64,000 nt of DNA from Candidatus Marinacidobacterales bacterium (lineage in GTDB: Bacteria > Acidobacteriota > Vicinamibacteria > Marinacidobacterales > SMYC01): the NCBI GenBank assembly GCA_965247365.1, contig CBDFHB010000002.1, positions 804,745-868,744 on the forward strand, written 5' to 3'. Each line of letters begins with the position of its first letter. Within the stretch, counting starts at the first letter, position 1. Under the pieces are notes generated by a model, which worked only from the letters and a program-made list of their open reading frames with translations, was not told the origin of the DNA and did no database searches. Below, in pieces: positions 2 to 62,752 of the stretch. The position numbers and the translations under genes were made by a program.

Positions 2-3000
2 GTCGCGTCCACCGTCACGGGGGCCGCATCCGCGCAGAACGAGATCGTCGCGCCGGAGCTCTTCTCGGGACTGCGCTATCACATGGTCGGGCCGTCCCGT
101 GGCGGACGCGTAACCGCCGTTGCCGGACATCGCGCCCAGCGGTCCACTTTCTATATGGGGGCGACGGGCGGTGGCGTCTGGAAGACGACGAACTATGGCG
201 CGACGTGGCATCCCATCTCGGACGGTTACTTTGGGAGTCCTTCGATCGGCGCCATTCGCGTCGCGGAGTCGAACCCCGACGTCATCTACGTCTCGACGGG
301 CTCGGATGGGCTACGCTCGAACGTCATCATCGGTAAGGGCGTTTACAAATCCACGGACGCCGGCAAGACTTGGAAGCACGTCGGTCTTTCGAAGACGGGT
401 AACAGCGGCGCCGTGCTCATTCATCCGCGCGATCCGGACGTCGTCTATGTCGCGGCGATCGGAAATCCCTTTGCCGCCAATTCCGAACGGGGCGTCTACC
501 GAACGAGGAACGGCGGCGAGAGCTGGGAGAAAGTGCTCTTCGTATCCGACGAGACCGGCGCGGTGGATCTCGAGTTCGCCCCCGACAACCCCGACGAGAT
601 CTACGCGACGATGTGGCGGGCCGAGCGCAAGCCTTGGACCATCATCAGCGGCGGGGAAGAAGGAGGCGTTTACAAGTCGATGGATGCCGGCGAGAACTGG
701 AAGCAGCTCACGAACGGTCTGCCGCGCGGACCGCGGGGCAAGGCGGATCTCGCGGTCAGCGCCGGCGATCCAAAGCGAGTCTATGTTCTCATCGAAGCTC
801 CGGGCACCGAGGGCGGCGTCTATCGCTCCGACGATCGAGGCGAGAGCTGGTATCAGGTCACGGACTTCCAACCCATCAGGAACCGGCCTTTCTACTACTG
901 CAATCTGGAGGCCCATCCGACGAACCCGGACATTCTTTGGGGAATGGCCGAGGATCACAACAAGTCCGAAGATGGCGGCAAGACGTGGGCGAGCAAACCA
1001 ACACCGCACGGCGACAACCACGACATGTGGATCAACCCCGACGAGCCGGATATCATCGTGCAGTCGAACGACGGTGGCGCCAACGTGACTCTCGACGGCG
1101 GCGAGACGTGGTCGGCCCAACACAACCAGCCGACCGCGGAGCTCTATCAAGTCGACGTGAGCGACGCATTTCCCTATCGGCTCTATGCCGGTCAGCAGGA
1201 TAACTCGACCATCTCGGTGCCAAGCCTGCCTCCCCGCAGCATGCCCGGTGGACATACCTCGCTCTGGGAGGATCAGGGAGGTTGCGAGACCGGGCCGGTG
1301 GTGCCGAAGCCCGGCGATCCGGATATGGTCTATGCGAATTGCAAGGGCCGCTTCGGACTATTCAATCGACGGACCGGTCAGGAGCAACAGCACTACGTGG
1401 GATTCTGGAACATCTACGGACACAATCCGAAGGACCTTCAATTTCGCTTCCAGCGCGTCGCGCCGATCCACGTTTCGCCTCACGATCCCAACCGGGTGTA
1501 CCACACGTCCCAGTACGTGCACGTGACGGAGAACGGGGGTCGTCAATGGCAGACCATCTCGCCCGACCTCACCGCCTTCACCGCTGAGACTCAAGTTGTC
1601 TCCGGAGATCCCATCACCATCGACGTCACCGGCGAGGAGCACTTTGCCGTCATCTACGAGATCCAGGAGTCGCCGCACGAGCGTGGGGTGATCTGGGTGG
1701 GTTCGAACGATGGGCCGATACACGTCACCCGCGACAACGGGAAGAGTTGGAAGAACGTGACGCCAGAAGGGCTCGGACCTTACGGTCGCGTACAGAACAT
1801 CGAAGTCTCACCGCACTACCCGGGAAAAGCCTACGCCGCGATCCTCCGATATCAGCTCGGTGACTTCGAGCCTCATGTCTATCAAACGGAGAACTATGGG
1901 GAGACCTGGACTCGGCTGACGACGGGCGACAACGGGATCCCGAACGACTACCCCGTGCGCGTCGTTCGCGAGGACCCTCACCGGGAGGGTCTTCTCTACG
2001 CCGGAACCGAGTTTGGCATGTTCGTCTCTTTCGATTCCGGCTCCCACTGGCAGTCGTTCCAGCTCAATCTCCCGGCGACTCCAGTGACGGATCTAAAGGT
2101 CGTTGGCAAGGATCTCGTGATGTCCACCATGGGACGGGGCTTTTGGATTCTCTACGACGTGACCCCGCTCCATGAGATCGAGCCGAGCATGGCGAGAGCG
2201 GACGCGCACCTGTTCGCGAGTGCGGAGGCTTACCGGCTTCGCTTGCCATCACAGTTTCTGCGCGAGGAGCGAACCCCCGACGAGCCCCAGTACAGAAGGC
2301 CCGGTGTCAACGTGGACTATTTTCTGGCGACAGAGCCCGACGGGGCGCTCATTCTCGAGATCTTCGACGTTGCCGGAGCGCTCGTGCGTCGGTTCTCGAG
2401 CGAGGACGCTTCCGAGAGCAACGTAGCTCCCGAGGAAGCGGGCATGCGGGTTCCCCAACTCGAGGCGATCGGAGCTCCCGAGCTCGACAAGAGCGCGGGT
2501 CACAATCGCTTTACGTGGGACTTGCGTCACGCGGGCGCCTGGCACGCTGAGGAAGAGCACTCCGGTCGCGACGGTCCCATGGTCGCACCCGGCACGTACC
2601 AGGCCCGCCTCACCGTCGGGGATTGGAGCGAGACCGTTTCCTTCGAGGCGAAGATCGACCCGCGCGTCGTCGCGGAGGGTCACGTGACTGACGAAGACGT
2701 TGCCGCACAAGTGAAGCTCGCGCTCGACGCGCGAGACGCCCTCAGCCGAAGCCGACTCGCTGCGAGCCGCGTCAACGAGGCGCTCTCAGAAGCGGAAGGC
2801 ACGAAAAAGGAAGCTCTTCAAGCGATCCGAAAGGAGCTCGTGACGGCTCCGAGGCGTTACTCACAGCCGATGCTCGTGGACCAACTGGACTATCTCTATG
2901 GCAACCTCGACACCGCCGACCAGCGCCCCGGCAAGGATGCCACCGATCGCTACGAGGCCCTGAATCGTCAGCTCGAAGAGCTCACGGGAAGGCTCGACGA

Positions 3001-3022
3001 GCTGCTGAGAACGACTGAGTGA
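2..3022 (+). CDS. BNR/Asp-box repeat beta-propeller protein (sortilin/VPS10-like family), 5'-partial
   Basis: Frame is open from base 2 (ASTVTGAASAQNEIVAPELFSGLRYHMVGPSRGGR...), so the ATG at 83 is probably internal. About ten Asp-box motifs are present: STDAGKTWKH, TRNGGESWEK, SMDAGENWKQ, SDDRGESWYQ, SEDGGKTWAS, TLDGGETWSA, TENGGRQWQT, TRDNGKSWKN, TENYGETWTR, SFDSGSHWQS. Stop TGA at 3020-3022. Confidence 0.8.
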   Translation, partial: VASTVTGAASAQNEIVAPELFSGLRYHMVGPSRGGRVTAVAGHRAQRSTFYMGATGGGVWKTTNYGATWHPISDGYFGSPSIGAIRVAESNPDVIYVSTGSDGLRSNVIIGKGVYKSTDAGKTWKHVGLSKTGNSGAVLIHPRDPDVVYVAAIGNPFAANSERGVYRTRNGGESWEKVLFVSDETGAVDLEFAPDNPDEIYATMWRAERKPWTIISGGEEGGVYKSMDAGENWKQLTNGLPRGPRGKADLAVSAGDPKRVYVLIEAPGTEGGVYRSDDRGESWYQVTDFQPIRNRPFYYCNLEAHPTNPDILWGMAEDHNKSEDGGKTWASKPTPHGDNHDMWINPDEPDIIVQSNDGGANVTLDGGETWSAQHNQPTAELYQVDVSDAFPYRLYAGQQDNSTISVPSLPPRSMPGGHTSLWEDQGGCETGPVVPKPGDPDMVYANCKGRFGLFNRRTGQEQQHYVGFWNIYGHNPKDLQFRFQRVAPIHVSPHDPNRVYHTSQYVHVTENGGRQWQTISPDLTAFTAETQVVSGDPITIDVTGEEHFAVIYEIQESPHERGVIWVGSNDGPIHVTRDNGKSWKNVTPEGLGPYGRVQNIEVSPHYPGKAYAAILRYQLGDFEPHVYQTENYGETWTRLTTGDNGIPNDYPVRVVREDPHREGLLYAGTEFGMFVSFDSGSHWQSFQLNLPATPVTDLKVVGKDLVMSTMGRGFWILYDVTPLHEIEPSMARADAHLFASAEAYRLRLPSQFLREERTPDEPQYRRPGVNVDYFLATEPDGALILEIFDVAGALVRRFSSEDASESNVAPEEAGMRVPQLEAIGAPELDKSAGHNRFTWDLRHAGAWHAEEEHSGRDGPMVAPGTYQARLTVGDWSETVSFEAKIDPRVVAEGHVTDEDVAAQVKLALDARDALSRSRLAASRVNEALSEAEGTKKEALQAIRKELVTAPRRYSQPMLVDQLDYLYGNLDTADQRPGKDATDRYEALNRQLEELTGRLDELLRTTE

Positions 3023-3177
3023 ACGCCGCGAGCTACCGTGAGTTCTGGCCGCTCTACCTTCGCGAGCACAGCAAGCCCATGACGCGCGCCCTGCACATCT
3101 CCCTCAGGCGACCGATGAAACTTCAGCGGAAATTCTCGACGAGCATGATGTTGGATTCGATCTCTCCCCGCACGTAA
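3019..3177 (+). pseudogene. DUF962 (Mpo1-like) membrane protein, N-terminal relic
   Basis: GTG at 3019 overlaps the upstream stop (GTGA). The first ~26 codons, MNAASYREFWPLYLREHSKPMTRALH, match the conserved DUF962 N-terminus. The remainder is unrelated and stops after 52 codons, versus ~100 or more expected. Confidence 0.35.
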
Positions 3178-3345
3178 ACCCTCGTCGGTGAGCGTCCAGT
3201 TACCGAAGCCAACCTTCTCGAGAACCAAACTCTTCCTCTCCCCCATCGATGGGCATGCGCCAGATGCCGAGAGGAGCTCCTGCCGCCTTGGTCTGCTTGG
3301 CAAAGTAGAGGTAAGTGGCGTCGTCCCCCGTCTCCGTTGTCAGCC
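3123..3345 (-). pseudogene. C-terminal relic of a PD40/TolB-like beta-propeller protein (multiple frameshifts)
   Basis: Three minus-strand frames read in succession give TETGDDATYLYFAKQ...GIWRMPIDGGEE / KSLVLEKVGFGNWTLTDEG / VYVRGEIESNIMLVENFR-stop. This resembles the characteristic C-terminus of PD40-propeller proteins. No intact ORF. Confidence 0.3.
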
Positions 3346-3592
3346 GACGGGTGCTTGCTTCATCTACTGTTGGTGACCCGCACCTATCCGCGTGGGAACA
3401 GGTTTATGAGCGTTTTTTGGCGATCTGTAGACGACGGCGCCAAGATAGGCTGTAATCTATTGCGTCATAGAGACTTGACTGCCTTTTAGTAAGACCTAAT
3501 GATGGAAGCACGCCAAGGGCGGCACAAAGCCACTGGAATCGAGCGAACTTTCCGTCTCTCCCACTCGTTTCTTGAGGTAACAGGAGGTGATC

Positions 3593-4423
3593 ATGCGCTC
3601 GCTCACGAGGAATCTAGCGGTCCTGGCGGCCCTCTTGACGCTCTCGGGTTGCCACATCGCCATGGGCGATGGAGCCTTTTCCGCCAGCGAGGATCTCGAG
3701 GAGACCTTGCCATTCGGGAGCGGAAGCTCCCTGGAGCTGACGAACGTCAACGGGCACGTCACGGTTTCGACCTGGGACCGAGAGGAGATCCGTGTCGAAG
3801 CGAAGAAATTTGCCTCGAGTGAGCGCCGTCTCGACGACGTGGAGATCGAGATCGAAGAGACGTCCGGCGTCGTCGAGGTCAGAACCCGCCTCCCGAAAGG
3901 GGGCTTGTTTTCAGGGAAAAGCAAAGTGGACTACCAGATCACTTTGCCCGCGACGGCGAGCGTGAACGTCCGGACGGTGAACGGGAAGCTCGTCTTCGCC
4001 GGCGTCGGGGGCCGTCTGGAGGCGAAGACGGTGAACGGCTCCGTCGAGCTCGAAAGCGCGCGGGGAGAGGTGGTGGCCACTACCGTGAACGGAAGCATCC
4101 AGGCGAGCTACGAGGCGCTCGACGAGCACGGCCGGAACCGCTTCTCCACCACCAACGGAAGCGTCCGCATCGAGCTTCCCAGGGATGCAAACGGAGAGTT
4201 CGAGGCCCGCACCATCAACGGCCGCATCCACAGCGACTTCGACGAGCTCGAGCCCGCCGGCCGCTGGGGAAGCCGAAAGCTGTCCGGCCAACTCGGAACC
4301 GGCGGCGGCTCCTTCGAGATCAAGACCGTCAACGGTTCGGTCCGGATAGAGAAAAGAGCCTCAGGTGCCGGACGTACCCTTTCTGAGCGACGATCGCGAA
4401 TCGCTGATTTCGACCCGCTCTGA
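3593..4423 (+). CDS. DUF4097-family lipoprotein (beta-strand repeat, putative adhesin-like)
   Basis: AGGAGG at 3582-3587, 5 nt before ATG 3593. Lipobox LTLSGC. Repeated (V/T/I)NG(S/K/H/R)(V/I/L) strands: VNGHV, VNGKL, VNGSV, VNGSI, TNGSV, INGRI, VNGSV. Confidence 0.75.
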   Translation: MRSLTRNLAVLAALLTLSGCHIAMGDGAFSASEDLEETLPFGSGSSLELTNVNGHVTVSTWDREEIRVEAKKFASSERRLDDVEIEIEETSGVVEVRTRLPKGGLFSGKSKVDYQITLPATASVNVRTVNGKLVFAGVGGRLEAKTVNGSVELESARGEVVATTVNGSIQASYEALDEHGRNRFSTTNGSVRIELPRDANGEFEARTINGRIHSDFDELEPAGRWGSRKLSGQLGTGGGSFEIKTVNGSVRIEKRASGAGRTLSERRSRIADFDPL

Positions 4424-4586
4424 CCACCCACGCTTTGGCGGATGCTCGATTTCGTCACGCTTAGATGACAATTGTGAACGGGGAGATCGGATCAAACGGC
4501 TAAACAGCTCCCAATGCACCCATACAAGGTGTGCTACCCTCCCACTCTCGAGCTACATCCACGCGATGCCCGAAGGGAGGATCGCC

Positions 4587-6647
4587 ATGTTGAAGCCTTC
4601 GCTGATTGTATCCACTCTCGCCCTCTGCCTCGTGAGCCAAGCTACCGCCCAAACGAGCGGCAACCGGTTGACGCTTGAAGGGTACCTCGATTACGAGACC
4701 GTCGACGACCCCAGACTGTCTCCCGACGGAAGCCGCGTCGTCTACACGCGCCTGTGGTTCGACAAGCTGGCCGATCGGCAGCAATCGTCGCTCTGGATCG
4801 TGAACGCCGACGGCACCCGCAATCGCTTTCTGATCGATGGCTCGAATGCTCGTTGGTCTCCCTCGGGCGACCGGTTGGCATTCGTCGCGTCTGGCGAGCC
4901 CAAGGGGCCACAAGTATTCGTACGCTGGATGGATGCAGAAGGGTCCGTCACTCAAATCACCCGCATCGACCAATCCCCTAGAAACGTCGCATGGTCTCCG
5001 GACGGTACGAAGATAGCTTTCACCATGTTGGTAGAAAAGAAGAATCAGTGGCCCATCGCTCTTCCGAAGCCGCCCCAAGGAGCCAAGTGGACCGAGTCCC
5101 CCAAGATCATCGAGCGGCTCGAATACCGCCGGAATGGTATCGGCTATATCGATACAGGGTACCTTCACATCTTCGTCGTTGCCGCGGAAGGCGGTACGCC
5201 GCGGCAGATCACTTCGGGCGACTACGATCACCCCGGGAGAGACCCTACTTCGAACAACAATCTGGCCTGGACGCCGGATAGCAAACAAATCCTTTTCAGC
5301 GGGCTCCGTGCCGCAGATGCCGACTATCAATGGCGGGAGTCCGAGATCTACTCGGTCGATGTCGCCACCAGCGAGGTGCATCGCCTCACCGATCGCAAAG
5401 GCCAAGATCAGACACCGAGGGTTTCTCCCGATGGAACGAAAGTCGCCTACAGGGGTTACGACTGGCACCGCGACTTTTATATGCACGAGATCTACGTCAT
5501 GGACATCGACGGCGGGAATCCTCGACTGGTCTCCGGCGATTGGGACCGTCGCTCGAAAGCCCTTTTCTGGGGAAGCGACAGCGACAGGCTCTACCTTACG
5601 GCCGAGAACGAAGGCAGCCGCGACCTTTACGCCCTTCCTCTGACCGGACCTGAGTCCAACAAAGTGGTGCCGGTGACGGAAGGTAACCATTGGGTCACGG
5701 TGTCCGAGATCAGTCCCAAAGGCCAGGCCGTTGCGGTTCGGAGCGATTTCCATCGGCCGCCGGACGTCGTTCTCTTCGACATTGCCCGAGCCGGAGCGAT
5801 GAAGCAGCTGACGCACGTCAACGACGATATCCTCGAAGGCATCGATCTCGGGGATGTGGAGGAGATCTGGTACGAAGCGCCGGACGGTGTTCGCCTCCAA
5901 GGCTGGTATATGACACCGCCGGATTTCGATGCGACGAAGACCTATCCCATGCAGCTTCACATCCACGGTGGCCCTCACTCCATGTACGGAGCACAGTTCA
6001 AATACAACTGGCACGAGCACGCGGCCAACGATTACGTCATTCTGTTTACCAACCCCCGAGGCAGCAGCGGTTATGGCAGCAAGTTTGGAAACTTGATCGC
6101 CGACGCCTACCCCGGCCCGGACTATCAGGATTTGATGGCCGGCGTCGACACGATGCTGGAAAAGGGCTTCGTCGACGAGCAGAATCTCTTCGTCACCGGC
6201 TGCAGCGGGGGGGGCATCCTCACGGCATGGATCGTTACCCAGACGGATCGATTCGCCGCAGCCTCTTCCAACTGCACCATCGTGGATTGGATGAGCCACC
6301 TGGGCACCACGGACATCGTCGTATCATTCTATCGCTTCCCCAAGCTTCCCTGGGAAGATCCGACATTGTGGTTGAAGCACTCCTCCATCAATCACGTGCA
6401 AAACGTGAAGACACCGACGATGCTCATCACCGGAGAGGAAGACCTGAGAACGCCGATCACCCAAGCTGAGCAGTTCTATCGGGCCTTGAAGTTCTTGAAA
6501 GTCCCGACAGCGCTTCTGCGCTACAAAGACCAGGCCCACGGAACCGGGACCCGTCCTTCCAACTTCATGAGGACTCAGCTCTATTTGCGCTACTGGTTCG
6601 ACAAATACAAACGCCCATCGGGGCGGACAACGGACGATCAGCGCTAA
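4587..6647 (+). CDS. S9-family serine peptidase (prolyl oligopeptidase/acylaminoacyl peptidase type) with N-terminal PD40 beta-propeller
   Basis: GGGAGG lies 7 nt before ATG 4587. Signal peptide MLKPSLIVSTLALCLVSQATAQ. PD40-like repeats (SPDGSRVVY, SPSGDRLAF, SPDGTKIAF, TPDSKQILF, SPDGTKVAY). Nucleophile elbow GCSGGG. The ORF-track start 4365 would overlap the upstream gene. Confidence 0.9.
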   Translation: MLKPSLIVSTLALCLVSQATAQTSGNRLTLEGYLDYETVDDPRLSPDGSRVVYTRLWFDKLADRQQSSLWIVNADGTRNRFLIDGSNARWSPSGDRLAFVASGEPKGPQVFVRWMDAEGSVTQITRIDQSPRNVAWSPDGTKIAFTMLVEKKNQWPIALPKPPQGAKWTESPKIIERLEYRRNGIGYIDTGYLHIFVVAAEGGTPRQITSGDYDHPGRDPTSNNNLAWTPDSKQILFSGLRAADADYQWRESEIYSVDVATSEVHRLTDRKGQDQTPRVSPDGTKVAYRGYDWHRDFYMHEIYVMDIDGGNPRLVSGDWDRRSKALFWGSDSDRLYLTAENEGSRDLYALPLTGPESNKVVPVTEGNHWVTVSEISPKGQAVAVRSDFHRPPDVVLFDIARAGAMKQLTHVNDDILEGIDLGDVEEIWYEAPDGVRLQGWYMTPPDFDATKTYPMQLHIHGGPHSMYGAQFKYNWHEHAANDYVILFTNPRGSSGYGSKFGNLIADAYPGPDYQDLMAGVDTMLEKGFVDEQNLFVTGCSGGGILTAWIVTQTDRFAAASSNCTIVDWMSHLGTTDIVVSFYRFPKLPWEDPTLWLKHSSINHVQNVKTPTMLITGEEDLRTPITQAEQFYRALKFLKVPTALLRYKDQAHGTGTRPSNFMRTQLYLRYWFDKYKRPSGRTTDDQR

Positions 6648-59790: not shown

Positions 59791-59925
59791 ACGGAACAGG
59801 CAAGCAATTCTCGTGCCCTAAGCGAGCCGCGACCTGTTGCGGGTTTTCTAGAGGAGCCGACCATTTGCTTACAACGAGCGTAATCGAGCTTACGATAACA
59901 GAAGGGAATTATATACTTGACGATC

Positions 59926-60381
59926 CTAAAGTCGGCCTTGGCTATGGAATCGGCTAATCTCACCGAGGTTGTGAACGTGTAGGAGCTTGTTCTTTCCTGC
60001 CTGACTTTTGAGCCACATTTCAGCCCCTTTGCTGTATCCGCCTCCGTCCAAAACGATGATGGTGTTGAACTCGTTCAACTGGATCGACAAGACCTCGAAC
60101 GGGTACTTTTCCTCCACACTGCCTGGGGACGCCTGCCACTTGCATTGAATGACCAGGCAATCCGGCCATCGTTGCGGATGGTACAGGATGAAATCGACAC
60201 GCCTGTTTTTGCCATAGATGTCGCGCCCGACGGAGCATTGTTCGGCGAAGATCGGCTGCCTCAACTCACGCATGGCAAAGAACCGCCCACTCGAAACGCG
60301 TTCGTATTCCTCGGACAGAAGATCGCTGACCGCGTTCTCTAATCGACGCCCGCGCTTGTTAGCCCTTGACCCTTTACTCAT
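59926..60381 (-). CDS. Small PD-(D/E)XK-like nuclease (putative restriction endonuclease)
   Basis: 151 aa. RRVDFILY...CLVIQCKWQASPGSVEEKYPF fits a D...(E/Q)xK core. The start overlaps the methyltransferase stop by 8 nt. The stop lies inside the left IR. Confidence 0.5.
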   Translation of the reverse strand: MSKGSRANKRGRRLENAVSDLLSEEYERVSSGRFFAMRELRQPIFAEQCSVGRDIYGKNRRVDFILYHPQRWPDCLVIQCKWQASPGSVEEKYPFEVLSIQLNEFNTIIVLDGGGYSKGAEMWLKSQAGKNKLLHVHNLGEISRFHSQGRL

Positions 60382-61249
60382 AGCTAGTGATGATCAACTC
60401 GGACACAGGTCCGCGTTTACTAGCCTGGCTGTTAATAAGCCGAGGAGCGACTGTTTCATGCAGGATGGTCTTTCCTCCTCGGTAGAGGCGCCGGATAAGC
60501 GACGTATCCGAATTACTCAACATGACGTTGGCTCCCATGTTGATCCAACCGTTGATTGCATCACGTAGACGCTCCTGATCCTCGGGCGTGAACCCACCAG
60601 CTTGGTATCCTGTAAAAGTTTCGTGGTAGGGCGGGTCACAATAGACGAAATCGTTCGCATTCGGATGAACGGCCTTCACGAAGTCACCGACTTGTATCGT
60701 GGCTTTCGCCAGCACCTTGCTCGCCGTCCGTAATTTATCGGCGTTGCATATATCTGGATTCTTATAGCGTCCCTTTGGAACATTGAACTTGCCAGCTTTG
60801 TTCACGCGGTAGAGTCCGTTGTAGCAAGTTTTGTTCAGATAGATGAAGCGAGCCGCAATTCCGATCGAGGTGTCGGGCTCTTGTGCACGAACTTGAAGGT
60901 AATGCTTTTCGTTCCTATGTCCTCGCTCGTGAGCTTTCAACGCTTCGATCAACTCATCAACTCGGTCTTTTACTACTTGGTAGGTGAGGACCAATTCCTC
61001 ATTCAGGTCGGATAGGACAGCTCTATCAATCCGATCCGCCATCGTAAAAAAGACGGCACCGCCGCCAACAAACGGTTCCCAATAGGTGCTCACACGCTCA
61101 GGAAAATACTTGGCAATCTCTGGGATTAAGGTTCTTTTTCCACCGGCCCACTTAACGAAAGGCATGGCCGGGGCCTTATCAAGATAAGGGCGCTTCGTGC
61201 GCTGAAGCACACGTTTAAGCTCACGATTGAACTGCACGATGTTACTCAT
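60374..61249 (-). CDS. Dam-class (D12) N6-adenine DNA methyltransferase
   Basis: PFVKWAGGKR, FVGGGAV (motif I), NKTCYNGLYRVN, CDPPYH (motif IV). ATGA overlap with the transposase stop. Confidence 0.9.
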   Translation of the reverse strand: MSNIVQFNRELKRVLQRTKRPYLDKAPAMPFVKWAGGKRTLIPEIAKYFPERVSTYWEPFVGGGAVFFTMADRIDRAVLSDLNEELVLTYQVVKDRVDELIEALKAHERGHRNEKHYLQVRAQEPDTSIGIAARFIYLNKTCYNGLYRVNKAGKFNVPKGRYKNPDICNADKLRTASKVLAKATIQVGDFVKAVHPNANDFVYCDPPYHETFTGYQAGGFTPEDQERLRDAINGWINMGANVMLSNSDTSLIRRLYRGGKTILHETVAPRLINSQASKRGPVSELIITSYE

Positions 61250-62157
61250 GAGATCAACCCTTTGTACGTCATCCGACTAGAAAGGCCATTCTCAATCAGG
61301 TGGGCTACACGGGCTGCTCGCCCCATATCCTTGTTGTTCATACGGAAGGCGCATCCGTCAAGGTAACGCTGCGTGTGCTTCTTGCTCCACCAGTGGTGGA
61401 TCCCGATGTACGCGCGCTTTACGAGAGCCCAAAATGACTCGATGCTGTTCGTATGAGCTTCGCCACGAACATACTCGCCACGGCTATGAGTCACACGCTC
61501 CAACGAATAGAAGCTGTCGAGAACCGAGTAACCTCGGTGCTCGTCTGCTTTGATCTTAGAGCCAAGAGCAACATGCCGGAGCGTGTGTGGCACTATGTTT
61601 GCGGCATTGGCGCCTTTCACGTGGAATGCCTTCGCCTTCCCGCCTCGCTCCCTCATGCCAAAAACGACCGCTTTGGTCTTGGTGCTACGGCCCTGCGTTC
61701 CTCGCGTGCGCTTGCGGGCGTGCTTGTTTTTCTCCTTGCCGCCGATGTAGGTCTCATCCAATTCTACGATTCCGCCGAGCATCCCTGAATCGTCGTTTCC
61801 GGCCGCATTGCGGATGCGCTGAAGCATATACCAGGCCGTTTTCTGCGTCACCCCGATATCCTTCGCTAGCTGGAGGCTAGAAATGCCCTTAGAGTGACAA
61901 GTATCGAGCCAGATCGCCGCGAACCATTTAGGCAGCAATTTGATCGGCGTGTCAGCGAACATGGTTCCAGCGATGATGCGGAAGACGCGTCGACAATCGC
62001 CGCACTTGTGCCGCCGTCCGTCGGAGAAGTGATAGATTCGCTCGTAACCACCGCAGAGTGGGCAATACGGGCCTTCCGTCCAACGCAGCCTTTCGAGCTG
62101 CTTTAGGCAGGCAGCGACAGTTCCGAACCTTTGTGTGAAGTCTAGTAGGCTGTCCAT
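61246..62157 (-). CDS. IS1595-family transposase
   Basis: N-terminal zinc ribbon CPLCGG...HKCGDCRRVF. DDE region VELDETYIGGK, IKADEHRGY, TNSIESFWALVKR. Confidence 0.9.
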   Translation of the reverse strand: MDSLLDFTQRFGTVAACLKQLERLRWTEGPYCPLCGGYERIYHFSDGRRHKCGDCRRVFRIIAGTMFADTPIKLLPKWFAAIWLDTCHSKGISSLQLAKDIGVTQKTAWYMLQRIRNAAGNDDSGMLGGIVELDETYIGGKEKNKHARKRTRGTQGRSTKTKAVVFGMRERGGKAKAFHVKGANAANIVPHTLRHVALGSKIKADEHRGYSVLDSFYSLERVTHSRGEYVRGEAHTNSIESFWALVKRAYIGIHHWWSKKHTQRYLDGCAFRMNNKDMGRAARVAHLIENGLSSRMTYKGLIS

Positions 62158-62359
62158 GACGGTCTCCTTATATAAGTATAATATACACCTATTCTGGGAT
62201 CGTCAAGTATATAATCCCCTTAATTAGTGCTCGGTCGCCTCTTCGGCTCCCTCGCTCCCCTCGCTCTTCGCTCGGGGAGGACGGCCCACTCGGGCCGGGC
62301 TCGCGGCAGATGCATGGGCAGCCGCTCGCATTCTAGTGCGCGCTCGGCTCTTCGCCTCG

Positions 62360-62752
62360 CTAGGGGATTAGCTGGAAGATACCGCTCGAGAGCAGCGCCT
62401 TGATGCGCGGCTGGGTTTCCTTGTCGAAGCGGACACCGGTCAGGTAGCCGACGATCTCTTTCACAGGCTCCATTCGCTCGGCGCACCACACGATCCAGGC
62501 CGATTCCTCCAAGAGCTTGTGCTCGCGTCGGCTTCGAATTTCGAGCGTAACTTCGCTGTTGAGAGGCACTTCGCGGTTCATGATGAAGCAGGCACCTGTC
62601 TCCGACATGTTCGATATGATGCCGAAGATTTGGCGGCGCTTCTCATCGGATCGAAAGTGCACCTCGATGGCCTCCAGCGGGAGAAACCTCGGGGCTTGCT
62701 CGCTCTTGTCCTTGACGACGACTTTTGCAGGCTGTTGAATGCTGGAAGTCAC
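62360..62752 (-). CDS. PilZ-domain-like protein
   Basis: 130 aa. EKRRQIFGIISNMSETGACF contains an NxSxxG element, but the RxxxR element is incomplete. Confidence 0.6.
   Translation of the reverse strand: MTSSIQQPAKVVVKDKSEQAPRFLPLEAIEVHFRSDEKRRQIFGIISNMSETGACFIMNREVPLNSEVTLEIRSRREHKLLEESAWIVWCAERMEPVKEIVGYLTGVRFDKETQPRIKALLSSGIFQLIP

Follow-up and report, generated by a model that had tools for sequence, protein, structure and literature searches.

Positions 59904 to 62219 of the window, the whole stretch of 64,000 nucleotides from a Candidatus Marinacidobacterales bacterium that was analysed here, are an intact, autonomous and recently active transporter insertion sequence (tIS) of the IS1595 family. 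The passenger of this autonomous element is probably a compact two-gene module for Type II restriction-modification (R-M), very probably directed at GATC. The element is made up of three minus-strand genes between terminal inverted repeats, encoding a transposase, a Dam-family methylase and a small nuclease (Table 1). An earlier sequence-only reading had proposed three open reading frames, with overlaps of 4 nt between transposase and methylase and of 8 nt between methylase and nuclease; they were recovered as claimed, with lengths of 303, 291 and 151 aa.

Table 1. Features of the element, in positions of the window.
Feature	Position	Strand	Remarks
Whole element, IS1595-family transporter IS (tIS), 2,316 bp	59904..62219	-	Boundaries from alignment to 98-99% identical copies
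IRL, transposase-proximal 23-bp terminal inverted repeat	62197..62219	-	GGGGATTATATACTTGACGATCC on the minus strand
IRR, cargo-proximal 23-bp terminal inverted repeat	59904..59926	+	GGGAATTATATACTTGACGATCC
IS1595-family DDE transposase, 303 aa	61246..62157	-	N-terminal zinc ribbon; PF12762, PF12760, NF033547
Dam-family (D12 class, alpha) N6-adenine DNA methyltransferase, 291 aa	60374..61249	-	Predicted GATC-specific; start overlaps transposase stop (ATGA)
PD-(D/E)XK nuclease (PDDEXK_11), 151 aa	59926..60381	-	Putative restriction endonuclease; start overlaps Dam stop by 8 nt
Putative sigma-70 operon promoter	62178..62206	-	-35 TTGACG (62206-62201), 17-nt spacer, -10 TATTAT (62183-62178)
Shine-Dalgarno AAGGAG	62164..62169	-	6 nt before transposase ATG; duplex energy -9.3 kcal/mol
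GATC in IRL	62198..62201	.	Overlaps final base of -35 hexamer (TTGACGATC)
GATC in IRR	59922..59925	.	Directly after nuclease stop codon (TAG|GATC)

The similarity to 98–99% identical copies in other genomes ends exactly at the two outer positions given in the table, and in other copies 8-bp target duplications adjoin the same repeat tips as those of the window element. The pair of 25-bp inverted repeats that had been claimed is real, but its true length, according to the comparison with more than 30 copies in which the repeats are kept, is 23 bp; the outer two bases are flanking sequence that matches by chance. IRL and IRR agree at 22 of their 23 positions, and the innermost base of IRR is also the final base of the nuclease stop codon. 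Since the pair is unique within the window, where 0 matches are expected by chance, and similarity stops at the tips, a chance repeat or a part of some larger unrelated repeat is ruled out. The inner block of the repeat, CTTGACGATCC, is kept even in elements with transposases that are only ~55–60% identical. With regard to base composition, the element has a G+C content of 52.8%, against 60.6% in the remaining window, and the G+C counts of 28/60 and 40/60 given earlier for segments inside and just outside it are exact.

Pfam and NCBIfam agree with the proposed IS1595 type of the transposase and with its zinc ribbon. The protein matches PF12762 (3.3e-41), the zinc ribbon PF12760 (1.2e-08) and the NCBIfam IS1595 model NF033547 (1.5e-55, 188 bits, with a cut-off of 75). 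The element thus has the DDE transposase with zinc ribbon and the terminal inverted repeats of the IS1595 family. Its tip, GGGAATTAT, and its length of 2,316 bp fit what we take to be the ISfinder end consensus of ISNwi1 (ggnnatTAT) and length range of passenger-carrying ISNwi1+ elements (1750–4750 bp), and by this presumed consensus the element would fall into the ISNwi1/ISNwi1+ subgroup. No curated IS name for this transposase lineage was found in the sources searched, and among its plasmid-borne relatives the nearest reach no more than 44% identity.

Transporter ISs have been described as elements with an IS1595-type DDE transposase, repeats of ~25 bp, 8-bp duplications and downstream passengers inside the repeats (PMC5704250 and a TnCentral preprint). 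Two of them, tISCpe8 of Clostridium perfringens and MTnSag1 of Streptococcus agalactiae, resemble the window element in transposase type, repeats, 8-bp duplications and downstream passengers. Known tISs such as these carry lincosamide resistance or mobilisation functions, whereas the cargo here is a methylase–nuclease pair. Furthermore, unlike in these tISs, the cargo is joined into the transposase operon with overlapping genes, and the repeats hold a conserved GATC, the predicted target of the cargo methylase.

The moving unit is the whole three-gene set, not the transposase alone, and it has inserted many times independently, crossing phylum boundaries. Perfect 8-bp target duplications, 87% A+T in composition, are present at 29 of the 35 complete copies, in unrelated genomic contexts; further repeat-bounded copies, which the sequence-only reading had called for, do therefore exist, and in these 29 insertions the duplications flank the three-gene unit, so that the passenger genes inside the repeats move with the transposase. 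The unit recurs with the same repeats in unrelated contexts across at least six phyla, and one Nitrosomonadaceae chromosome contains five full copies and one partial copy. In three other Marinacidobacterales assemblies, copies are 98–99% identical in DNA to the window element over the entire 2,316 bp. Scanning metagenomes for the core of the repeat added just a single copy (L087), besides one match due to chance, and a search of plasmids with the DNA of the whole element gave no match. All three genes are under purifying selection (pN/pS ~0.3; dN/dS ~0.12–0.15). Going by record names only, the hosts appear for the most part to be symbionts of marine sponges.

The window copy itself has no target-site duplication, as had been noted, and the 8-mers that flank its corrected ends, TAACAGAA and TTAATTAG, also differ; neither of them recurs nearby in the window. 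Exact-protein look-ups of both flanking genes revealed no empty site for this copy, and the 24-nt left junction, scanned against metagenomes, gave no match either. Most likely the duplication was lost when two copies recombined after insertion, and the flank swapping between the copies L013 and L016 within one genome shows a route by which duplications get lost. The missing duplication would also suit a chance association, in which an ordinary IS1595 copy landed beside a resident methylase–nuclease pair, with an outer repeat that is solo or matches by chance. The probability of such an accident is close to nil: it is already refuted by the identical architecture of 29 other insertions, with duplications flanking all three genes, and by the sister-copy similarity, which covers all 2,316 bp and ends at both repeat tips; moreover, the repeat is the only one of its kind in the window, with no chance match expected.

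The methylase matches PF02086 (9e-61) and TIGR00571 dam (266 bits) and contains the motifs FVGGGAV and DPPY, in line with the D12/Dam class to which it had been assigned. Its closest solved relative is M.DpnIIA (2DPM, 4.4e-62), with EcoDam at 1e-37, and the residues with which EcoDam contacts GATC (K9, Y119, N120, L122, R124, P134 and Y138) are all kept. These similarities argue strongly for a DpnII-M/Dam-type enzyme that methylates GATC. As a candidate Type II methyltransferase, it has both catalytic and AdoMet motifs together with the predicted GATC target, which is present in both repeats.

The nuclease belongs to the family PDDEXK_11 (PF20472, 1.4e-27). Against the DpnII family (PF04556) it scores 0.0037 and 17.1 bits, below the cut-off of 23, over model positions 141–251 of 278; 18 of the 27 nuclease homologues score below 0.01 against this family, all of them sub-threshold and the best at 2e-06. 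On these profile scores, the nuclease is a remote relative of the DpnII family and not a member. The D...QxK arrangement that had been recognised in the third reading frame corresponds to D63, Q79 and K81, and differs from the canonical D...(D/E)xK. Among the 27 homologues, E15 and D63 are invariant and Q79 and K81 are at least 90% conserved. The expected nuclease fold is borne out by the AlphaFold model (pLDDT 87.7), whose fold matches, weak as they are (best E = 8e-3), are almost all PD-(D/E)XK proteins, with the restriction enzyme BstEII on top; these PD-(D/E)XK matches are restriction or repair enzymes. At the sequence level, no PDB entry matched the nuclease up to E = 10, and none of the PADLOC restriction-enzyme models recognises it. 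A Dam gene lies directly upstream of the nuclease gene in 74 of 80 loci, and in ~30 of the 80 the pair is found without a nearby transposase, in some cases cleanly between housekeeping genes. An Alicyclobacillus plasmid carries such a pair at 34% identity, beside an Abi gene. The protein thus combines the PF20472 core, conserved residues, a confident model and an adjacent Dam gene, as in an endonuclease linked to a Type II R-M system.

A PD-(D/E)XK protein encoded in an insertion sequence could instead be a transposition accessory, like the TnsA of Tn7, that cuts the second strand at the element ends while Dam has a merely regulatory role. TnsA is also a restriction-enzyme-like PD-(D/E)XK protein with a gene beside that of a DDE transposase, both repeats of the window element contain a GATC, and the nuclease gene runs exactly up to the repeat. 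This role is nonetheless very improbable, and it was rejected. The loci that pair Dam and nuclease without a nearby transposase indicate that the constant partner of the nuclease is Dam, not the transposase; the transposase alone suffices for transposition of other IS1595-family elements; the GATC, 18 bp inside the tip, is in the wrong position for end cleavage; and no TnsA is found among the fold matches.

The three genes are very likely co-transcribed as a single operon. Their sigma-70 promoter would have its -35 box within IRL, the repeat next to the transposase. This putative promoter is the best match in the region (10/12), and the architecture TTGACG-17-TATAAT, with a -10 box matching at five or more of six positions, is present in 22 of 29 related elements. 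Expression together with the transposase, as had been suggested, is further supported by the ATGA overlap and the overlap of methylase stop and nuclease start, both conserved across elements, and by the ribosome-binding sites: in the 19 elements scored, one precedes the transposase in 11, the methylase in 11 and the nuclease in none (0/19). The nuclease appears to be translationally coupled to the methylase since, with no ribosome-binding site and a start that overlaps the methylase stop, it would be translated only by ribosomes arriving straight from the methylase. Such coupling would ensure modification before restriction.

Under the R-M reading, the nuclease would be a minimal remote DpnII relative that cuts unmethylated GATC. 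The cargo would protect the host from foreign DNA and, via post-segregational killing, make the element hard to lose, which would account for the persistence of the methylase–nuclease pair where the transposase has decayed. The suggestion that the passenger is an R-M pair, or at least a methylase with a nuclease, draws support from the Dam gene found upstream in most loci, from the relationship to M.DpnIIA and from the nuclease fold. In the known DpnII/MboI-type systems, which are Type II and recognise GATC, methylase and nuclease genes are likewise adjacent; the window methylase is closest to M.DpnIIA (4e-62) and keeps the GATC-reading residues, and the window nuclease shares remote similarity with DpnII enzymes over their catalytic half. 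It differs from the DpnII family, however, in being about half its size and below its threshold. In addition, the window element has a single methylase instead of two, the gene order M then R, translational coupling, and a location of the R-M genes inside an insertion sequence.

Some of the same observations would suit a tIS with a cargo other than a restriction system, with Dam as an orphan or epigenetic methylase and a PD-(D/E)XK protein that acts in repair, in nicking, as a methylation reader or with another specificity. We regard this as unlikely. PADLOC scores the methylase equally as a Type II enzyme (MTase_II, 5.6e-87) and as an orphan (1.4e-86), and the failure of its restriction-enzyme models to match the nuclease points the same way, as do the length of just 151 aa and the Q within the D...(D/E)xK motif. 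GATC is also not avoided in the host (413 observed in the window vs 436 expected), a count which is uninformative. In a related subclade, moreover, many copies have a frameshifted methylase and an intact nuclease gene, and a free-standing restriction enzyme would be lethal there; these copies are compatible with the R-M model only if the nuclease is kept silent through coupling or the methylase comes from another copy. Against a non-restriction cargo, the order of Dam then nuclease with its stop/start overlap is kept from Acidobacteriota to a Bacillota plasmid, a typical R-M signature, and the match to the DpnII restriction-enzyme family is remote but repeated. Furthermore, the closest solved relative of the methylase belongs to the DpnII R-M system, purifying selection on the nuclease is as strong as on the transposase, and the missing ribosome-binding site suits a toxic protein that depends on its antidote. 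An R-M module remains the preferred reading of the passenger.

Neither transporter ISs nor mobile R-M systems are new, and R-M systems have long been argued to act as selfish mobile elements. To our knowledge, clear cases of an R-M unit with its own transposase and many visible jumps are scarce, and the element would be such a case, with three overlapping genes in 2.3 kb and dozens of independent insertions. No description of the element was retrieved when the literature was searched for it, for sponge-associated IS1595 and for transposase-bearing mobile R-M units, catalogues of IS1595 passenger genes being outside the scope of these searches. Furuta, Abe and Kobayashi (2010; PMC2853133) have reported transposon-like R-M units, such as the XorKII unit of Xanthomonas oryzae, which has inverted repeats of 65 bp and a duplication of 8 bp. 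Such units lack a transposase, and their means of movement was left unexplained by the authors. They share with the window element the R-M genes within imperfect inverted repeats and the 8-bp duplication, whereas the window element is autonomous and has many independent insertions. A passage of the same article cites the 2009 IS1595 paper (Siguier et al.) on ISs with which R-M systems or solitary methylases are associated, and the IS1595 family therefore probably holds some precedent. The element would offer a compact model of an IS that gains stability, and its host a benefit, from an addictive defence module. Its nuclease family, if confirmed, would be among the smallest GATC-type restriction enzymes, and it goes unrecognised by current defence-system libraries.

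The GATC sites that had been located in both repeats are conserved, being present in 57 of the 58 repeats of 29 elements. Related left ends without a Dam cargo (L089, L084 and L085) have no GATC at that position in three out of three cases, a comparison of left ends only; no right ends matching the left ends of the distant transposase relatives L084–L086 and L089 were found. In IS10, IS50 and IS903, a GATC in the terminal repeat and in the transposase promoter couples transposition to the methylation state. The window element likewise has a GATC in its terminal repeat and at the transposase promoter, at the -35 box TTGACG. The methylase is the host's in those three elements, while here the element would bring its own; the GATC abuts the -35 box, as opposed to the -10 box in IS10, IS50 and IS903. 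Speculatively, the methylase may mark the GATCs of the repeats and so feed back on operon expression and on transposase binding.

From there, one may sketch a jumping gene that is a self-contained epigenetic switch, a scenario we hold to be possible but rather doubtful. The element's own Dam would methylate both repeats, and methylation of the GATC in IRL would act on the one promoter from which all three genes are expressed. A burst of expression and transposition would follow entry into a naive cell with unmethylated DNA, or a round of replication, and end once the genome is methylated. Through the coupled nuclease, the element would serve in defence and as an addiction module alike. The control of transposition by Dam, exerted on IS10 and IS50 by a host methylase, would thus have been internalised by the element. 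The methylase of a proteobacterial subclade and, via coupling, the nuclease would also be switched on and off by a poly-G tract, which would give a mobile phase-variable R-M system.

This variable tract lies inside the methylase gene and shifts the C-terminus in or out of frame. The window copy has CGAGGAGGAAAG at the tract position, with no poly-G and the methylase in frame, and phase variation would concern only the related proteobacterial copies. Among these, the length of the tract ranges from G6 to G18; within one chromosome there are pure runs of G16, G14 and G9, together with two copies that have a 14-nt tract interrupted by one A (GGGGGGAGGGGGGG). The subclade shares with phase-variable DNA methyltransferases (phasevarions) the hypervariable repeat in a methylase gene. 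Classical phasevarions involve Type III mod or Type I hsd genes, whereas in the subclade the gene concerned is a Dam gene inside an insertion sequence.

The strongest inverted repeat in the region, which is unique in the 64-kb window where none is expected by chance, encloses three minus-strand ORFs. Their coordinates are as the sequence-only reading gave them, with an overlap of 4 nt (ATGA) between the transposase and Dam ORFs and of 8 nt between the Dam and nuclease ORFs. The terminal repeats proposed in that reading are real, but their length of 25 bp is not: alignment of the ends with those of other copies gives a conserved terminal repeat of 23 bp, GGGAATTATATACTTGACGATCC, 2 bases shorter at each end, and the element therefore spans 59904-62219 (2,316 bp). 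Its tip, GGGAATTAT, fits the consensus of the ISNwi1 subgroup. Profile searches matched all three of the gene identities that had been proposed: the transposase belongs to the IS1595 family (PF12762, 3e-41; zinc ribbon PF12760; NCBIfam NF033547, 188 bits with a cut-off of 75), the methylase is a Dam-family D12 methyltransferase (PF02086, 9e-61; TIGR00571, 266 bits) and the 151-aa protein is a PD-(D/E)XK nuclease (Pfam PDDEXK_11, 1.4e-27) with an extra weak match to the DpnII restriction-enzyme family. The G+C content is 52.8% in the element versus 60.6% in the remainder of the window, and the two 60-nt G+C counts made from the sequence alone are exact.

Coordinates of the genes and predicted promoter of the element in the window
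Feature	Position	Strand	Remarks
Transposase ORF	61246-62157	minus	303 aa
Dam methylase ORF	60374-61249	minus	291 aa
Nuclease ORF	59926-60381	minus	151 aa
Predicted promoter	62206 to 62178	minus	10/12 match, best in region; independent scan of the window

Homologues of the nuclease number 370 in the protein collection, nearly all of about 151 aa. In the first three contexts examined, the transposase-Dam-nuclease trio stands in entirely different neighbourhoods, flanked in each of the three by a perfect 8-bp direct repeat. When one genome per species was scanned, 538 loci with a relative of the nuclease came up, and among the best 80 of these, which were analysed by script, a transposase lies upstream of the nuclease gene in full in 35 loci and in part in 12. 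Perfect 8-bp target duplications, 87% A+T in composition, were found in 29 of the 35 complete elements (a count that includes the window copy and L090, a more distant copy), so the further repeat-bounded copies that the sequence-only reading had suggested looking for do exist. The window element shares 99.0%, 98.7% and 97.9% DNA identity with copies in three other Candidatus Marinacidobacterales assemblies, the similarity ending at the repeat tips, and these are separate recent insertions of one element. That the mobile unit comprises all three genes together is near-certain, and the element is an autonomous, recently active and widely spread transporter IS (tIS) of the IS1595 family.

Several copies show particular surroundings or states of decay. 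MmeI-type methylase/TRD genes and a weak TIR-domain gene stand immediately upstream of a sister copy of 97-99% identity (L001, 134-2980), which looks as if it had landed in a defence island. A decaying copy of the window element in Marinacidobacterales contig CBDANW010000003.1 (L005, about 2795-5482) has acquired some 1.1 kb of foreign DNA between Dam and nuclease and has lost the transposase stretch equivalent to window 61480-62055; its Dam and nuclease are still 99% identical to those of the window. The copy in L090/L091 (3932-6293 in L090), with a 54% identical transposase and the 8-bp duplication AAATGAAA, sits between uppS and cdsA, inside the conserved rpsB-tsf-frr-uppS-cdsA housekeeping cluster.

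The window copy itself shows no target-site duplication, as noted from the sequence alone, and this holds with the corrected ends, where the element is bordered by the 8-mers TAACAGAA and TTAATTAG; no second occurrence of either is seen close by in the window. On one side of the insertion is a polysaccharide-biosynthesis gene and on the other a PilZ-domain gene; a search for the corresponding empty site found none. A comparable situation is seen in a 2.4-Mb Nitrosomonadaceae chromosome (OZ252054.1) with five full copies and one partial copy (L011-L014, L016, L072), three of the full copies being without target duplications. There, the sequence AACGCTTT flanks L013 on the left and L016 on the right, a sign of recombination or inversion between element copies, and such inter-copy recombination would be a plausible origin of the missing duplication in the window. 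Copies L012 and L014 of the same chromosome have the same left flank, TTTGTGAT. To the right of the window element, the intergenic stretch before the PilZ gene (62222-62360) consists of odd CT/CG-rich low-complexity sequence (ctcggtcgcctcttcggctccctcgctcccctcgctcttcgctcgggg...).

With regard to the nuclease, residues E15, D63 and K92 are invariant among 27 homologues, and Q79-C80-K81 and E96 are near-invariant. From the homologue alignment, AlphaFold gives a confident model (pLDDT 87.7, pTM 0.85) that places D63 and Q79-K81 on adjacent strands, as a PD-(D/E)XK core would have them, in agreement with the fold first proposed. The fold search gave no close structure; its weak matches are almost all PD-(D/E)XK nucleases, the top one being the restriction enzyme BstEII (E = 8e-3, TM 0.50). 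The DpnII family model is matched at E < 0.01 by 18 of the 27 homologues (best 2e-06), all under the family threshold and over the catalytic half only, and the nuclease is a remote relative of that family, not a member. The PADLOC restriction-enzyme models do not recognise it.

The strongest functional evidence for the nuclease is its gene context. The protein could be read as a transposition accessory, playing the part of TnsA in Tn7, but a Dam gene lies directly upstream of it in 74 of the best 80 of the 538 loci, including loci without a transposase, which speaks against such a role. At transposase-less loci the Dam-nuclease pair is found between housekeeping genes, such as those for chorismate synthase or an oxidoreductase. 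Furthermore, plasmid p1 of Alicyclobacillus sp. TC (L093, 3177-4486) encodes a PDDEXK_11 protein of 34% identity immediately after a Dam-family methylase, adjoining an Abi-family gene; no IS1595 transposase accompanies the pair on this Bacillota plasmid, and the pairing therefore predates the IS and extends beyond it. This context argues for Dam and the nuclease being a functional methylase-nuclease pair. In a neighbour-joining tree, transposase-bearing and transposase-less loci are interleaved and the deepest branches are transposase-less, a pattern consistent with an IS having captured a chromosomal pair, the transposase then being repeatedly lost and the pair kept.

The closest solved relative of the methylase is M.DpnIIA (4.4e-62), which methylates GATC in the DpnII system; E. 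coli Dam (1e-37) comes next. EcoDam reads GATC through R124 (Gua4), Y119 (intercalation), N120, L122 and P134 (inner base pairs) and K9 and Y138 (first base pair) (PMC4417163). In the alignment all seven are kept in the window methylase, as K33, Y143, N144, L146, R148, P158 and Y162, so that GATC specificity is strongly predicted and appears highly probable. The main inference of the sequence-only reading, an IS with a methylase and a nuclease as passengers, is thus supported, and its restriction-modification (R-M) part is the most likely interpretation: the cargo, Dam and a coupled small nuclease, most likely forms a GATC R-M module, and the nuclease is rather probably a restriction enzyme. 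At a Spongiisociaceae locus (L068, 2977-4995), the Dam preceding the nuclease is embedded in a longer ORF of 672 aa, of which it makes up the C-terminal portion, behind an unannotated extension of roughly 400 residues at the N-terminus.

The TnCentral preprint treats transporter ISs as an established category and confines them to the IS1595 and IS66 families, and IS1595-family examples have 25-bp repeats and 8-bp duplications (PMC5704250). Furuta et al. (2010) refer to a 2009 paper on IS1595 for the association of R-M systems or solitary methylases with ISs, and they report transposase-less R-M units between inverted repeats with 8-bp duplications (PMC2853133). No published description of the window element was found in the searchable literature, nor a curated IS name for close transposase homologues in any source searched. 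The element adds to known kinds, the tIS and the mobile R-M system, and is not a separate new category.

A sigma-70-type promoter is common to the left ends of 29 elements, with TTGACG inside the terminal repeat and, 15-17 nt away (17 nt in 22/29), a downstream hexamer that matches TATAAT at 5 or 6 positions in 22 of the 29. Recognisable Shine-Dalgarno sequences precede the transposase and Dam genes in 11 of 19 elements each and the nuclease gene in none of the 19. Given this lack, and the overlap of the nuclease start with the Dam stop, the nuclease is probably translated only by ribosomes that finish Dam, which would be a simple way to secure protection ahead of restriction. Purifying selection acts on each of the three genes (pN/pS about 0.3 with synonymous sites saturated; dN/dS 0.12-0.15 in the unsaturated pairs only). 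The cargo is tightly packed, the GATC of the distal repeat abutting the nuclease stop codon. In another copy, L006, the leader is 22 nt longer because three tandem copies of an 11-bp unit, ATGCCTATATA, lie ahead of the transposase Shine-Dalgarno, downstream of the -10 box (3141-3235).

The GATC reported within each terminal repeat is indeed present, and the same holds for 57 of 58 repeats overall; in the promoter-bearing repeat it overlaps the final base of the -35 box (TTGACGATC). The entire inner block of the repeat, CTTGACGATCC, is conserved, and selection on GATC is therefore inseparable from selection on the transposase-binding site. The left ends associated with a sister IS1595 transposase (L089, 54% identical, different downstream genes) and with two plasmid relatives (L084 and L085, transposase 41-44%) are similar, with a TTGAC/TTGCC box and no GATC, and lend weak support to a link between GATC and the Dam cargo; this comparison covers left ends only, the right ends not being definable. 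Methylation of GATC-bearing ends as a means of control has precedents in IS10, IS50 and IS903. That the element controls its expression or transposition by methylating its own ends is a plausible but tentative proposal, rather less likely than not. In L089 (3931-7100), the left end, GGGTAGAAATACTTGCC, is followed by four small ORFs instead of Dam and nuclease, with no Pfam match on record and several reading as coiled-coil or membrane-like; a right end was sought and not found, and the locus may be a tIS with a different cargo.

In a proteobacterial subclade whose nucleases are 77-88% identical to that of the window, a poly-G tract, 6-18 nt long, is embedded in the Dam gene (L002/L010, L003, L007-L020, L023, L055 and L067), about 30 codons before the Dam stop and some 95-110 nt upstream of the nuclease ATG. 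Past the tract, the conserved Dam C-terminus continues in frame 0, +1 or +2, varying by copy. The five near-identical copies of the Nitrosomonadaceae chromosome have pure G16, G14 and G9 tracts and, in two cases, a 14-nt tract broken by one A, a range greater than simple homopolymer sequencing error would give. All frameshifted Dam copies have the tract except L029 and L079, degenerate loci with truncated Dam matches, and in no in-frame locus (53 loci) does the G run exceed 6 nt, except in L008 (G17), L016 (G9) and L055 (G8). The window Dam is in frame and without a tract, 60470-60481 reading CGAGGAGGAAAG on the minus strand. The pattern resembles phase variation of the methylase or transcriptional slippage in its gene. 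When out of frame, Dam terminates 75-90 nt short of the nuclease start, which would break the coupling, so that the tract may switch methylase and nuclease together, the nuclease perhaps varying as well through lost translational coupling. These frameshifts pose the most serious difficulty for a simple R-M reading, since they leave intact nuclease genes next to truncated methylases.

The element is found in Acidobacteriota, Alpha-, Beta- and Gammaproteobacteria, Chloroflexota, Poribacteria, Binatia and others. In the JGI metagenome collection (241 million records) the repeat core hardly occurs, with one further copy (L087). In the record titles of L004-L083 and L087, lineages that take their names from marine sponge symbionts or are typical of them predominate: Poribacteria, Poriferihabitaceae, Spongiisociaceae, Caldilineaceae, SAR202-type Dehalococcoidia and sponge-study bin labels. 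Judging from these names, the hosts would largely belong to marine sponge microbiomes, which suggests a cross-phylum spread restricted by habitat.
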